Shown one piece after another: positions 25,550 through 31,838 of a stretch of DNA of 42,043 nt (the stretch's first letter is position 1; the number at the start of each line of letters is the position of its first letter). The notes beneath the pieces were generated by a model, which worked only from the letters and a program-made list of their open reading frames with translations, had not been told where the DNA came from and did no database searches. Source of the stretch: a virus. Its lineage: Duplodnaviria; Caudoviricetes. The translations under genes were made by a program, and so were the position numbers. The stretch is from positions 1 through 42,043 of IMG/VR virus record IMGVR_UViG_3300025572_000014. One strand, written 5' to 3'.

Positions 25550-26074
25550 CTAGCTCGTTTTTTCTTCGTTTTTCTCTGCGCGTGACAAAAGCTGCTCCAA
25601 CTGCACCAACTCTTCCGGCGACAGGCTGCGCAGATCGTGCGTAATGGTCTGTTTGACCCCGCCGCTGTGCTCGATCTCGTGCTTGTCGCGCCAATTCTGC
25701 GGCTGTCTGTTTTTCAACCACGCCATCGCGGCGCCGGTGTCAGGTGCAACCTCTTTTACGACGCGCTTTGTGATGGTCTCTGTGCCGTCTTTTCCGGGCT
25801 CAACAGTGATTTCCTCGTACTGGTACCCTTTGGCTCGCTTGTAGAGGCTGGCGGCCACCTCGGCGTCTGCAATCTCTTTGCCCCTTTTTAGGGCGTCGCA
25901 AAACTCCGAATATGTATCCTTCCATCGGTAAATCGTTGCTACGTCTACACCAAGAAACTCTGCAAGTTGCGCATCAGTTGCTCCAAGAAGGCAAAACTTA
26001 TATGCTAAATCGGCATATTCCGGCTTATACTTGCTCGGCCGCCCGCCAATCCCTTTCCTGCTTTTCTTCTCCAC
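25550..26074 (-). CDS. terS: Terminase small subunit
   Basis: GRPSKY, HTH (GATDAQLAEFLGVDVATIYRWK), SLYKRAKGY and PDTGAAMAWLKNRQP motifs; GAGGGGG RBS before GTG 26074. Confidence 0.9.
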   Translation of the reverse strand: MEKKSRKGIGGRPSKYKPEYADLAYKFCLLGATDAQLAEFLGVDVATIYRWKDTYSEFCDALKRGKEIADAEVAASLYKRAKGYQYEEITVEPGKDGTETITKRVVKEVAPDTGAAMAWLKNRQPQNWRDKHEIEHSGGVKQTITHDLRSLSPEELVQLEQLLSRAEKNEEKTS

Positions 26075-26196
26075 ATCATCCGCCCCCTCGCGCGCGATTT
26101 CACCTAATGGCACTTCGTAAGACAAAAAACCGCACATTTTATCGCTTCGCAAAATTTGTTCACAAATTCGTAACATTTTGTTCGTATTATGTTCGT

Positions 26197-26225
26197 TTGA
26201 CAGTCGTAAAACGATGTGGTATGAT
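26197..26225 (+). promoter_or_regulatory. Near-consensus sigA promoter of the plus-strand operon
   Basis: TTGACA-17 nt-TATGAT with a TG extension and an AT-rich upstream region. Confidence 0.85.
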
Positions 26226-26237
26226 GAAGCCAACAAA

Positions 26238-26267
26238 GGCCGACAGCCGACGACAAGGGCGGCGGGC
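26238..26267 (+). repeat. Leader element A, copy 1 (GGCCGACAGCCGACGACAAGGGCGGCGGGC)
   Basis: Identical to 26680-26709; directly precedes an RBS. Confidence 0.9.
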
Positions 26268-26283
26268 GGAAAGGATGGTCAAA

Positions 26284-26619
26284 ATGAAGAAAATCAAAAT
26301 CAATTATTACGCCGGGGAATCGAATTACCTGGGTCACGGCCAGCCCATCGCGGTTGACTACCTCATCTCCGACCCCCTCGATTGGGACGATCTCCGGGGA
26401 GACGAATTCGACGGCCCGATATTCGGGGACGACACCGCCGCCGATTTGATCCGGGTTGGCGGCAAATATCACCTGTACGCGGAAATGGAAAATCCCACCC
26501 GGAGCGAGGAAGACGAGACCGCAACTTTTGACAAGCTAAAAGCAGAAATCATCGAGCTTGCGAAAAAGGTTGGCATTGATCCGAGCCGACTTGTATTCCC
26601 GTATGACGACCCCGCCTGA
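26284..26619 (+). CDS. Acidic hypothetical protein (MKKIKINYYAGESNYLGHG...)
   Basis: GGAAAGGA RBS; its TGA stop is the UGA of hammerhead 1. Confidence 0.75.
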   Translation: MKKIKINYYAGESNYLGHGQPIAVDYLISDPLDWDDLRGDEFDGPIFGDDTAADLIRVGGKYHLYAEMENPTRSEEDETATFDKLKAEIIELAKKVGIDPSRLVFPYDDPA

Positions 26620-26665
26620 CGAGTCCGCTGGTCACGGACGAAACCGGGTTTATCCCGGTCGCGGG
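26611..26665 (+). ncRNA. Hammerhead ribozyme 1 (type I), predicted cleavage after C26660
   Basis: CCCGC | CUGACGA | GUCCG-cugguca-CGGAC | GAAA | CCGGG-uuuau-CCCGG | UC | GCGGG. Complete core, three perfect stems and a GUC triplet. Confidence 0.95.
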
Positions 26666-26679
26666 AGACCGCACATCAT

Positions 26680-26709
26680 GGCCGACAGCCGACGACAAGG
26701 GCGGCGGGC
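26680..26709 (+). repeat. Leader element A, copy 2
   Basis: 30/30 identity with 26238-26267; between hammerhead 1 and the next RBS. Confidence 0.9.
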
Positions 26710-26727: not shown

Positions 26728-26991
26728 ATGGTAAAGATTGCGATCAAGGTGCAAAACAGCAAGGTTTACGGCGAAGACGAAAAGGGAACCTGGGAGGACT
26801 TGCTGGAAGAAATGGCGCTGAAAGTCGAAGGGTGGGCCGGCTACGACGTTGACGAGTCCAGCTACATCGGCGGAGCACGGCACATGCGGGGAACACTAAA
26901 CGATGAAAACTTTAAACCGATCTACACCTTCTACGCGGTTGTAACGGCTGAATGGGGCGAGGCCGAGGTCGGCAGGCTTCGGGGAGAGTGA
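26728..26991 (+). CDS. Hypothetical protein (MVKIAIKVQNSK...)
   Basis: AAAGGAGAAGGA RBS, ATG 26728. Confidence 0.7.
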   Translation: MVKIAIKVQNSKVYGEDEKGTWEDLLEEMALKVEGWAGYDVDESSYIGGARHMRGTLNDENFKPIYTFYAVVTAEWGEAEVGRLRGE

Positions 26992-27001
26992 CTTGACCGC
27001 C
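26969..27001 (+). repeat. Element B, copy 1 (TCGGCAGGCTTCGGGGAGAGTGACTTGACCGCC)
   Basis: 32/33 identical to 28089-28121; contains the stop of 26728-26991. Confidence 0.85.
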
Positions 27002-27043: not shown

Positions 27044-27109
27044 CCCGCCTGACGAGGCCCGGAGCGGACCGGGCCGAAACCTAGCCGCAGCTGCGGCGAT
27101 GGTCGCGGG
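27044..27109 (+). ncRNA. Hammerhead ribozyme 2 (type I), predicted cleavage after C27104
   Basis: CCCGC | CUGACGA | GGCCCGG-agcgga-CCGGGCC | GAAA | CC-ua-GCCGC-agcu-GCGGC-gau-GG | UC | GCGGG. Same core and stem I as HH1, with different stems II and III that still pair. Confidence 0.92.
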
Positions 27110-28044: not shown

Positions 28045-28067
28045 AAAACTGTCGGCGCTGAACGAAT

Positions 28068-28130
28068 GAAGCCCGCCGATCTCGCACATCGGCAGGCTTC
28101 GGGGAGAGTGACTCGACCGCCGCTCTCCCC
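28068..28130 (+). repeat. Double hairpin containing element B, copy 2
   Basis: GAAGCCcGCCGAU-cucgcac-AUCGGCaGGCUUC followed by GGGGAGAGUG-acucgaccgc-CGCUCUCCCC. Confidence 0.7.
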
Positions 28131-28161
28131 TCCATCATATCACATTTGGAGGGATTTGCAC

Positions 28162-28626
28162 ATGGAAAACATCAGCGTCGTCGCCGTGAAGCAGGTTCGG
28201 GAGCGGACGCTCCCCTACAACGTTCGTCCCATTCGCCAGCCCGAGGATGCTTATTCGATCCTTTGCGAAGCGATGGCACTGCACGAGGAAGCCATCGAAA
28301 AGTTTGGTGTTCTGCTCCTGGACACCAAATGCAACGTGAATGCCATCCAGATCATTTCCGCGGGGACCTTGGACCAAACGATCGTCCATCCGCGTTCCGT
28401 CTTCCTTGCGGCCGTTCTCGCGAATGCTCGGCAAATGATCCTGTTTCACAACCACCCGAGCGGAGACCCGAAAGCAAGCCGGGCAGACGTGGACATCACG
28501 CTCCGTCTCATCGACGCAAGCCGCATCATGGGCATTCCGATCATTGACCATATCATCGTAGGTGACGGAACATTTTACAGCATGCGAGCGCACGGCGACA
28601 TGCCTGCGCCGGAAGGGGCGGCCTAA
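28162..28626 (+). CDS. radC: RadC-like JAB/MPN domain protein
   Basis: EKFGVLLLD...GTLDQTIVHPR.VF...HNHPSGDPKAS.AD...IIDHIIVG; GGAGGG RBS; stand-alone JAB domain. Confidence 0.92.
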   Translation: MENISVVAVKQVRERTLPYNVRPIRQPEDAYSILCEAMALHEEAIEKFGVLLLDTKCNVNAIQIISAGTLDQTIVHPRSVFLAAVLANARQMILFHNHPSGDPKASRADVDITLRLIDASRIMGIPIIDHIIVGDGTFYSMRAHGDMPAPEGAA

Positions 28627-28724
28627 TGGACGTTGAATCATGGTTCCTGTTTACGCTGGCGCTGTTCGTAGTCCTCGGCGGGCTGACGCTCATTGCGTGG
28701 TTCGCCGAGATGCTGGAGGATTAA
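28626..28724 (+). CDS. 32-aa single-TM peptide (MDVESWFLFTLALFVVLGGLTLIAWFAEMLED); absent from the ORF track
   Basis: TAATG coupling to the radC stop, GAAGGGG RBS, hydrophobic core; its stop abuts twister-sister 1. Confidence 0.65.
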   Translation: MDVESWFLFTLALFVVLGGLTLIAWFAEMLED

Positions 28725-28797
28725 CGAAGGCTAGGCCCAGTCCCGTGAAAGCCGGGACCGGCGGGGAGCACCCCCGCCGCGGCGCTCAACCGATCGT
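28725..28797 (+). ncRNA. Twister-sister ribozyme 1 (three-way junction), predicted cleavage C28787/A28788
   Basis: GG-CUAG-GCC-CA-GUCCCG-ugaaagc-CGGGAC-C-GGCGGGG-agcac-CCCCGCC-GC-GGC-GCUCA-A-CC. Closely matches the twister-sister architecture as I recall it (GCWAG...GCUCA internal loop, UG.AAGC loop). Confidence 0.85.
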
Positions 28798-28852
28798 ACC
28801 TATGAGGAATGCGGCCTGCGGCCGTAAAAATCAATCAAAAGGGTGATGTTGG

Positions 28853-29278
28853 ATGACGTTGTTTCGGAAGAAGTTTCCCTCCTTTCTGGAGGGACTGCAT
28901 GAGCTCATGCAGGTTTGCTATTCTGCTCGTCAGTCTCTCAGCCACAACCTCGGACGCTCGCCTGCGTCTGAGGAAGAAGCGGTTTCCGCGCTGGCGATCA
29001 ACGCAGTATGCGATCGCCCGACCGGAAACGGCGTAGATTGGGCGCGGTGCAGCTTGTCCGTCACCGCCACGGACGTTCTTTACCGTACCACGGGCGGACT
29101 TGAATTCGGGTGGAGTCCGCTTCTCGGCGGCGGCCAGACAGATATTTTTGATGGTTCGTTCGAATTTCTCATCATCTATCCGGGGTGTGTGCCCGCTCCG
29201 CCGCACTCCACCTTGCGCAAGAGTTGCGCAGAGGCCGGTTGGGAGGTGGTGGAACCGTTGGAACAGTCCGAGGGCTAG
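28853..29278 (+). CDS. Hypothetical protein
   Basis: AAGGGTG RBS; its TAG stop lies in the GCUAG of twister-sister 2. Confidence 0.65.
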   Translation: MTLFRKKFPSFLEGLHELMQVCYSARQSLSHNLGRSPASEEEAVSALAINAVCDRPTGNGVDWARCSLSVTATDVLYRTTGGLEFGWSPLLGGGQTDIFDGSFEFLIIYPGCVPAPPHSTLRKSCAEAGWEVVEPLEQSEG

Positions 29279-29331
29279 GGACAAGGCCGTGAAGCCCGGC
29301 GCGGGGCCGCGGCCCCTTCCGCTCAACCTCG
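29269..29331 (+). ncRNA. Twister-sister ribozyme 2 (variant), predicted cleavage C29324/A29325
   Basis: CGAGG | GCUAG | GGA | CAAG | GCCG-ugaagcc-CGGC | GC | GGGGCC-gc-GGCCCC | U | UCC | GCUCAA | CCUCG. P2 covaries with TS1 (GCC/GGC to GGA/UCC); the loop deviates. Confidence 0.7.
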
Positions 29332-29361
29332 AAAGAGGAAATGAATAAGGAGTTGATTCCA

Positions 29362-29769
29362 ATGAAAATTGGGCTGATTCGCGGCCGGCATCCGCTGCCG
29401 GTCGAAAAATGCCTGATCGAGCAGGCAGAGGTGCCGTTCGATCAGGCGCATCGCATGGCATATGACGCCATGCAGAAGCTGCTATCGGAACATGCCGGAG
29501 ATGTCGATCTTTACATTACCGGCCTTAAGCGCGCCACGTTGGGCGCCGTCGCAGGCTGGATCAATCACTACGACCGCATCGAGCCAGCGGAATACAGTTC
29601 CGCCGCTCCCGAGTCGCGCACGCTGCGGATCTGGGAGTATAACGCGGTAACGGGGCAGTACGAATCCGTCATTGCATTCCGGTCCGGGGCAATCATGACG
29701 GAAGTCCTTTACTGTCAGGGCTCATACCAGTTCGTCTGGGGTACATATGCCCTCATGGAAGGGACGTGA
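29362..29769 (+). CDS. Hypothetical phage protein with GRH and LYITGL motifs
   Basis: AAGGAG RBS; MKIGLIRGRHPLPV...VDLYITGL...LRIWEYN..TGQY. Confidence 0.75.
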   Translation: MKIGLIRGRHPLPVEKCLIEQAEVPFDQAHRMAYDAMQKLLSEHAGDVDLYITGLKRATLGAVAGWINHYDRIEPAEYSSAAPESRTLRIWEYNAVTGQYESVIAFRSGAIMTEVLYCQGSYQFVWGTYALMEGT

Positions 29770-29825
29770 GGCCTCTCCCATGTTTTTCACAAGTAAGGAC
29801 ATTATTCGCGGAGGAGGAATTAGAC

Positions 29826-31216: not shown

Positions 31217-31723
31217 CTACACCAGGAACAGGTTCGTTTCTTTTTCGCGCCGGATCTTCGCCCGCGCCCGCTCGACATATTCCTGCACCGCGCCCTTTGC
31301 TAAGTGCAGCTCCCGCGCGATCTCCCCGAAACTCATCCCGTCAACCACATGCATTACGAAACATTGGCGCTCGCGCATAGTCAGATCGCGCATCGCCTCT
31401 TCGATACGAAACCGATCATCGTCTGTAAGCCCCGCTGTGATCGTCTCGCGCTCGATAGACCAGCCGTAAGGGGAATGATACCGGTCCAGCCATTCGGGCG
31501 CCCACGGGCGCTCGTAGCGCCTCTCAACGCCTTTCAGCGATTTAGGATTGCGCCCTGTCTCCAGCCACTGAAGCGCGAACTCCACGTCCCCGAGCATGCT
31601 GCTGATGATTTCGCGGTCTGCCGCATCCTTTGTTTTCTCTCTCAACTTTTGCAGTCCGCGACGCGCAGCCCGATATTGTGGTATGAGATCGACCACTGAT
31701 TCGTTCCAATGCCCGACAGCCAT
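31217..31723 (-). CDS. Late-gene activator, sigma-70 region 4 (PBSX Xpf-like)
   Basis: IISSMLGDVEFALQWLETGRNP and LTMRERQCFVMH...SFGEIARELHL..G.VQ.YVERARAKI; last gene of the early operon. Confidence 0.85.
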   Translation of the reverse strand: MAVGHWNESVVDLIPQYRAARRGLQKLREKTKDAADREIISSMLGDVEFALQWLETGRNPKSLKGVERRYERPWAPEWLDRYHSPYGWSIERETITAGLTDDDRFRIEEAMRDLTMRERQCFVMHVVDGMSFGEIARELHLAKGAVQEYVERARAKIRREKETNLFLV

Positions 31724-31777
31724 TCCCCGACCCCTCCCCTGTGGTATAATAGGGTTAGGGAGAACATATTTTCTTTG

Positions 31778-31811
31778 CCCCGCCGACCAGCTGAGCCGGC
31801 GGGGATTTTTT
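31778..31811 (+). terminator. Intrinsic terminator (plus-strand U-tract)
   Basis: CCCCGCCG/CGGCGGGG stem followed by ATTTTTT. Confidence 0.7.
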
Positions 31812-31838
31812 ATCTATGCAATACTTCTTCCAGTGGTG

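Follow-up and report, generated by a model that had tools for sequence, protein, structure and literature searches.

The window analyzed here, the linear IMG/VR virus record IMGVR_UViG_3300025572_000014, has 42,043 bases. Its integrase, portal, capsid, terminase, and DnaD/DnaC-type replication genes lie on the minus strand. The best matches of the terminase are to Bacillus, Faecalibacterium, and Staphylococcus phages (45 to 48%). From these matches and the phage gene set, we infer a temperate phage of a Bacillota host. About ten short open reading frames (ORFs) form an island on the plus strand, between the small terminase gene (25550 to 26176) and a sigma-like gene (31217 to 31723). Within this island, two twister-sister ribozymes, TS1 and TS2, bracket a single gene (Table 1). 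We propose that TS1 and TS2 cut the island transcript at gene boundaries, and that TS1 is active while TS2 is a recombinant that cuts slowly. This is a prediction from sequence and modeled folds, to which we assign a probability of about 0.6.

Table 1. Coordinates of the ribozymes, genes, and other features of the plus-strand island
Feature	Coordinates	Strand	Basis or remark
TS1, three-way-junction twister-sister ribozyme, C-G subtype	28723..28798	+	Rfam and R1 models, fold
TS2, twister-sister family member	29267..29333	+	R1 model, motifs, fold
TS2 5' half	29274..29289	+	16 nt, identical to C-G-subtype lineage
TS2 loop and 3' P4 arm	29290..29302	+	G-C-subtype type
Bracketed gene, 141 aa, unnamed protein family	28853..29278	+	UAG stop at 29276-29278, inside TS2 L1 loop
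Sigma-A/70-type promoter	26197..26225	+	Heads the island; 11/12 consensus bases, 17-nt spacer, extended -10 TG; consensus match only
HH1, type I hammerhead	26610..26666	+	Rfam RF00163 at 22.6 bits, under gathering threshold of 34; full core, three stems
HH2, type I hammerhead	27044..27109	+	Core motif and fold; predicted cut after 27104
RadC-like JAB-domain gene	28162..28626	+	Pfam PF04002, E = 7e-40
Hydrophobic 32-codon ORF	28626..28724	+	Stop codon 5 nt upstream of TS1 catalytic loop
Downstream gene	29362..29769	+	Homologues 3' of other twister-sister subtypes elsewhere

TS1 has the twister-sister core

TS1 matches the Rfam twister-sister model RF02681 at 40.4 bits (gathering threshold of 34; E = 1.2e-05). 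It also scores 59.0 bits on R1, a covariance model that we built from 84 relatives with TS1 and TS2 excluded. Its motifs are GCUAG at 28730 to 28734, P2 strands GCC/GGC, and the loop UGAAAGC at 28746 to 28752. The conserved L1 residues and the C/A cut site are present (28730 to 28734 and 28784 to 28789, in the numbering of PMC5660989), and the cut is predicted at C28787/A28788. P2, P4, P5, and the SL4 loop are also present. P4 has a predicted probability of about 1, and the native-fold penalty is 1.0 kcal/mol.

We used 5T5A as the reference frame, with sequence and numbering from PMC7373991. In this frame, C14 directly follows P2 as the first base of the junction, and G27 is position 7 of the 9-base loop. 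The G27-C14 loop-junction tertiary pair is described in PMC5660989. The equivalent bases are C28738 and G28751 in TS1, where the pair is intact, and C29282 and C29295 in TS2. Both elements have P1-L1-P2, P4/SL4, P5, and the three-way junction in common with 5T5A and RF02681, as well as residues G5, C6, A8, G9, G59, C60, and U61 and the C/A cut site. From L1 through P4, TS1 equals the 5T5A strand except at two loop positions. The differences from 5T5A are U and A at two variable L1 positions and, in TS1, an interrupted P1, in which an internal loop separates a first pair from four further pairs. The original prediction that TS1 is canonical therefore holds for the core and the docking pair but not for the atypical P1. 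We consider it highly likely that TS1 is active.

The loop-junction pair is swapped among relatives

In viral sequences, motif scans gave 59, 19, 24, and 28 stretches, and a scan of 26 of 64 metagenome parts gave 130 stretches, with 128 loci used. A structural descriptor requiring a full P2, three P4 pairs, and three of five P1 pairs gave 143 distinct cores. It keeps TS2 and drops TS1 on P1; looser versions keep 159 to 163 cores. The class had been described as rare, but the phage and metagenome data hold at least about 160 distinct cores. The descriptor had no match in 200 simulated windows. In GTDB genomes (10 of 64 parts), which served as a negative control, 0 of 120 matches to a loose pattern passed the descriptor. 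R1 gave 60 matches in family loci at 39.5 to 82.1 bits, with partial overlap with its training set, and at most 17.4 bits in control loci.

Alignment A1 contains 84 sequences chosen by hand from 134 listed, with near-duplicates and mismatched copies left out. Every helix covaries in these sequences, with 93.5% of the helix cells paired, versus 63% after shuffling and at most 48% in slid registers. The P2 swap between TS1 and TS2 is thus genuine covariation, as had been supposed. A GGA/UCC P2 is common in the family, and it is not specific to TS2.

The tertiary pair is C-G in 45 and G-C in 39 of the A1 sequences, a count that is not a test because these were hand-chosen. In the metagenome pattern, both tertiary positions were unconstrained. 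It gave 109 distinct matches, and in the 99 that passed a stem filter the pair is C-G in 47, G-C in 49, G·G in 2, and G·U in 1. Two C·C matches are among the 10 dropped by the filter, one of them being the structured copy in locus L153. Judged from these sequences, the loop-junction pair is swapped from C-G to G-C across the family, which defines a G14-C27 subtype. The swap is seen against four different loop backgrounds and with either GGA or GCC in P2, and the G-C subtype makes up about half of the GGA/UCC branch. Rfam finds 3 of 18 G-C-type cores and 8 of 15 C-G-type cores (20 loci). Four SL4 loops lie beyond those known: AGAAUGC, AGAAUCC, GGAAGGC, and UGAAACC. Compared with 5T5A and RF02681, the family adds the G14-C27 subtype and the first three of these loops, which Rfam mostly misses. 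The proposal that the consensus could be extended is therefore borne out, among relatives, by the G-C subtype and the additional SL4 loops.

In a third twister-sister subtype, which we also observed, P2 is GUU/AAC, loop position 7 holds U, and the junction is longer (L039, L112, L118, L139, L143, L157, and L204). The copy at L121 2580 has an extra insert between P2 and P4 and is probably a four-way-junction form. Twister P1 and P5 ribozymes occur in the same arrays (L112, L091, and L126), together with a weak RAGATH-36 match that overlaps a twister-sister core.

TS2 carries mismatches in its docking domain

TS2 scores 63.4 bits on R1 (E of about 3e-17, rough calibration), so that both elements belong to the twister-sister family, as first claimed. 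The next-best match in the window has 16.7 bits, and R1 found no further twister sister there above this score. The Rfam check that had been suggested succeeded for TS1 and returned no match for TS2 at E ≤ 10. This failure says little, because RF02681 also fails to detect 15 of 18 intact G-C-type copies. All of the motifs originally read in TS2 are in the sequence. GCUAG lies at 29274 to 29278, with GCUCAA farther 3'; P1 is perfect (29269 to 29273 with 29327 to 29331, five of five pairs); P2 is GGA/UCC; and the loop is UGAAGCC at 29290 to 29296. The predicted cut site is C29324/A29325. The L1 residues, cut site, P1, P2, and P5 are all intact.

The tertiary-pair site, however, is mismatched (C29282·C29295), whereas 96 of the 99 unbiased relatives keep C-G or G-C. 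Besides GGA/UCC, TS2 thus differs from 5T5A in having C for G27 with no compensating junction G and in two P4 mismatches, A29284·C29302 and G29285·G29301. Three P4 pairs and the closing pair remain. The idea that TS2 is a cleanly covarying copy therefore fails, since its G-to-C loop change is uncompensated, unlike in 49 of the unbiased relatives.

Fold predictions were made for the same cores. The P4 probability of TS2 is 0.0, the lowest of 143 cores (median, 0.996). Forcing the native fold carries a penalty of 7.0 kcal/mol, which ranks first of 159 (median, 0), at both 37 and 60°C. When TS2 is folded in isolation, P1 and P2 form at a probability above 0.9. The alternative fold has two stems around the GCUAG/GCUCAA internal loop, plus an unrelated hairpin. 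These models suggest that TS2 is probably impaired.

TS2 might instead be fully active, if Mg2+ drives the native three-way fold, C·C is tolerated, and the 537-nt product forms efficiently. Besides the high R1 score and the perfect P1, L1, P2, and P5, this view can draw on the 13 of 143 cores that have only three P4 pairs below the closing pair. Moreover, the equivalent G in the four-way form makes a triple and not a pair (PMC5660989), so the contact appears to be flexible. However, C·C occurs in 0 of the 99 unbiased matches, and the sole structured C·C copy, in L153, has a P4 mismatch and looks like a hybrid. The misfolding penalty, the largest of 159, also argues against full activity, which we regard as unlikely.

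Two other readings of the TS2 loop were rejected. The loop is not a one-base deletion, because its spacing is canonical and the identical loop occurs in L150 and L254. Nor does the TS2-type loop with junction C mark a separate family, since P2 and P4 were both fully paired in 0 of 19 viral matches. When viral contigs were searched for an exact 18-base match to the TS2 loop region, 18 matches were obtained, none within a ribozyme.

TS2 may cleave like a minimal ribozyme

The LINE-1 minimal ribozyme has the loop residues G36 C37 U38 A39 G40 and G7 C8 U9 C10 A11 A12 (PMC11620745). LINE-1-type loop strands are present in TS1, TS2, and 123 of 159 cores. The minimal ribozyme cleaves at 0.03 to 0.11 per min, compared with about 5 per min for the full twister sister (PMC11620745). 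Because the P1-L1-P2 remainder of TS2 has these loop strands, we infer by analogy that TS2 would cleave slowly, like the minimal ribozyme. The match between its alternative fold and the minimal ribozyme supports the view that TS2 may work like it, not that it descends from it.

TS2 is likely a recombinant of the C-G and G-C subtypes

The 5' half of TS2 is found exactly in three distinct cores (six loci, including L081), all intact and of the C-G type, with the loop AGAAUGC and a matching P4 arm. The piece at 29295 to 29302 occurs in seven other cores, and the junction base is G in seven of seven. The complete TS2 loop occurs with a junction G in L150 and L254. A contig of run X2 (107 nt, depth 3.9) covers 29226 to 29341 and has G, G, and C at 29282, 29284, and 29285, so that the tertiary pair and a five-pair P4 are restored. 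Run X9, from the same study, also has G at 29282. In a second X2 contig, the identical ORF end precedes a different ribozyme subtype.

Comparison of these sequences indicates that TS2 is likely a recombinant of the two subtypes. It most likely arose by an exchange inside the shared GCCG before the loop, which would have joined a C-G-type 5' half to a G-C-type 3' half. Such an exchange would break the docking pair and let P4/P5 misfold, while P1-L1-P2 would still form.

TS2 could also be a dead or dying G-C-type copy that gained three point mutations without recombination and has no useful activity. It does differ from the X2 allele at three positions within four bases, and all three changes damage the docking domain. 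Yet, taken together, these changes yield a 16-nt 5' half identical to one in circulation among intact C-G-type ribozymes. Elsewhere TS2 is without decay, reciprocal hybrids exist (L159), and a minimal ribozyme with the same loop strands has been shown to cleave. Simple decay is accordingly an improbable account.

Alternatively, TS2 could be a chimera made when two similar repeats from a mixed sample were assembled as one. The record is metagenome derived, and short ribozyme-core contigs in run X1 show that the sample holds other copies. However, a single X1 contig of depth 13 covers 28749 to 29800 with 0 differences from the window, and the halves share 4 bases at the joint, too few for a long-word misjoin. 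X1 may be the source sample, in which case it is a re-assembly and not an independent sample. We consider a chimera very improbable.

Similar anomalies were seen elsewhere. L153 (C·C) and L159 (G·G) have P4 mismatches and lie inside ribozyme arrays; they are apparent further hybrids, or possibly assembly errors. In L091, the P1 strands of the copies at 1501 and 2638 are exchanged, each 5' strand fitting the other's 3' strand. This is expected either after cassette insertion through a shared core or from misassembly.

The ribozymes lie at gene boundaries

The bracketed ORF is a real gene. Sixty other clusters match it at E ≤ 0.001, and its third codon positions hold 18 of 29 allele differences (P = 0.0014). 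The original prediction of a pair that brackets one ORF is therefore upheld, and this is the usual setting. Of 40 tandem ribozyme pairs, 32 enclose one ORF, with a median cut-to-cut distance of 452 nt. The 537-nt spacing predicted for the TS1 and TS2 cut sites (28788 to 29324) is likewise found in the sequence.

The bracketed protein has no Pfam or PHROG match, and a domain shared with 14 relatives has no Pfam match. A word-index search matched only the protein itself, and its cluster members are named only "hypothetical." We did not accept a laminin-G-like identity (Atlas, 0.92), as only about 97 to 106 of 256 features are common. The structure model is a confident alpha/beta model (predicted local distance difference test score [pLDDT] of 94). 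A fold search with it found no match (best Z of 4.8), which does not show a new fold. One member of the family (about 60 clusters) is fused to TPR repeats.

The stop codon position recurs among relatives. An ORF of at least 120 nt stops within -15 to +5 of the loop in 123 of 165 cores, compared with a random mean of 13.5 and maximum of 22. In 29 of the 123, the loop's own UAG is the stop codon, as in TS2. A ribosome-binding site and start codon lie within 90 nt downstream in 134 of 169 cores, a count made with no control run. For six of the nine island proteins, homologues occur in ribozyme loci, with differing gene orders (254 loci searched). The bracketed gene and two other island proteins have no homologues in these loci. 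All five related virus records tested share pieces with the window; one of them, G001, shares the small terminase region and the start of the island.

Proposed processing of the island transcript

The promoter that heads the island would drive a transcript of about 4.9 kb that runs opposite to the rest of the phage genes, with a start near 26232 as judged from the promoter sequence. Cuts by the hammerheads HH1 and HH2 and by TS1 and TS2 would yield pieces of about 429, 444, 1,683, 537, and 1,825 nt if the ends are as assumed. At each cut, the ribozyme body would remain on the upstream message as a structured 3' end with a 2',3'-cyclic phosphate. The downstream message would begin with a short 5'-OH leader that holds the next ribosome-binding site. 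The cuts would thereby uncouple the stability and translation of the upstream and downstream messages. Because TS2 is expected to be slow, the 537-nt single-gene product would be minor, and an RNA of about 2.4 kb from TS1 to the end would be major. The overlap of the ribozyme and the stop codon also suggests that terminating ribosomes transiently unfold the active site. The 5'-OH end may either stabilize or doom the downstream message. In the case of glmS, cleavage leads to degradation (PMC6765202). Clustered prophage hammerheads cut such transcripts in vitro, and mRNA processing has been proposed for them (PMC3088659).

Several observations weigh against this proposal. P1 of TS1 is unusual, since 161 of 173 cores have at least three consecutive pairs. 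When TS1 and TS2 are folded in their flanking context (160 nt), both are predicted to lose P1 and P2, which makes their modeled activity in sequence context uncertain. Folding programs ignore Mg2+-dependent docking, and a low P4 probability is also predicted for some otherwise perfect cores (L013, L250, and L135). The minimal ribozymes may not share the structure or mechanism of twister sister (PMC11620745). Three point changes could also produce TS2; the X2 allele is one contig, and X2 and X9 come from one study whose contigs cannot be phased. The two subtypes have a P4 5' arm in common in 0 of 38 cases, so they are partly lineages, and the counts overstate the number of independent swaps. 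Finally, no relative of the bracketed gene adjoins a ribozyme in the related-locus scans (254 loci).

Other elements of the island

HH1 and HH2 both have the CUGANGA...GAAA...UH core with three stems. The CUGA core of HH1 overlaps the stop codon of ORF 26275 to 26619, and its cut is predicted after 26660. The Rfam search of the window gave no match for HH2, and copies similar to HH2 are present in G001. Homologues of the RadC-like gene adjoin twister-sister ribozymes in other loci. A family search with the 32-codon ORF gave no match. The downstream gene has homologues of 55 to 62% identity in L179, L020, L128, and other loci; a related-locus scan with this gene found nothing.

The leader before radC (28066 to 28160, plus strand) is conserved. 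It has two hairpins and a third pairing of CCUCC with the ribosome-binding site (z = -2.95). A partial copy lies at 26969 to 27001, and similar copies with altered stem pairs occur in the twister-sister islands L105, L394, L081, L180, L009, and L103. The leader has no match in Rfam, and we regard it as a candidate unnamed translation-control RNA. A perfect 30-nt repeat on the plus strand (26238 to 26267 and 26680 to 26709) lies just 5' of ribosome-binding sites. One copy is at the proposed transcript start and the other follows HH1; similar copies occur in G001 and L200. Past the sigma-like gene, a terminator-like hairpin with a U run (31775 to 31813, plus strand; weak Rfam alignment) may end the read-through transcript of the island. 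RNA run X3 has contigs inside island genes and none that span the ribozymes; it was not used, as contigs cannot show transcription or cuts.

Comparison with known systems and significance

The twister-sister class and ribozymes that bracket genes are already known. In the open-access literature we found no G14-C27 subtype, none of these loop variants, and no hybrids; Liu et al. 2017 and Weinberg et al. 2015, or their supplements, may hold G-C examples or mutant data. The available portions of PMC6154101, PMC6707401, PMC13764992, and PMC12016570 make no mention of the subtype, the loop variants, or hybrids. The L1 strands GCUAG and GCUCAA are the same as those of the LINE-1 ribozyme, studied with OR4K15 in PMC11620745. 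In contrast to those minimal ribozymes, TS1 and TS2 have SL4, P4, and P5, are phage encoded, and lie at gene boundaries. In the prophage hammerhead clusters (PMC3088659 and PMC6765202), several ribozymes likewise bracket single genes or short variable blocks in a temperate phage. The present island differs in that it mixes two hammerheads with two twister sisters, in that its ribozymes overlap or abut stop codons, and in that hybrids point to DNA exchange inside ribozymes.

A wider reading is conceivable, although as a whole we hold it only tentatively and doubt that all of its parts are right. Twister sisters might cut the message at gene boundaries and, as DNA, anchor the shuffling of single-gene cassettes between phages. 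TS2 might then be a crossover caught in the act, in which C-G/G-C exchange converts a fast ribozyme to a slow, minimal form and tunes how often neighboring genes remain on a single message. The G14-C27 subtype might offer, as the first such case found here, natural compensatory support for the crystal's tertiary pair.

Twister sister has been described as among the least understood self-cleaving ribozymes (PMC6707401), and what ribozymes near phage genes do biologically has yet to be settled (PMC6765202). The natural cores, at least about 160 in number, together with the pair swap and the new SL4 loops, amount to a natural mutational scan of the docking domain, and they reveal an undercount of the class by Rfam. 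TS1, TS2, and intact G-C relatives provide a ready test of what the loop-junction pair is worth. Since the island has four predicted cut sites behind a clear promoter and a natural allele predicted to be impaired, its fragment patterns can be predicted. The loop strands common to most natural copies and the human LINE-1 ribozyme bear on whether there is a single catalytic motif.
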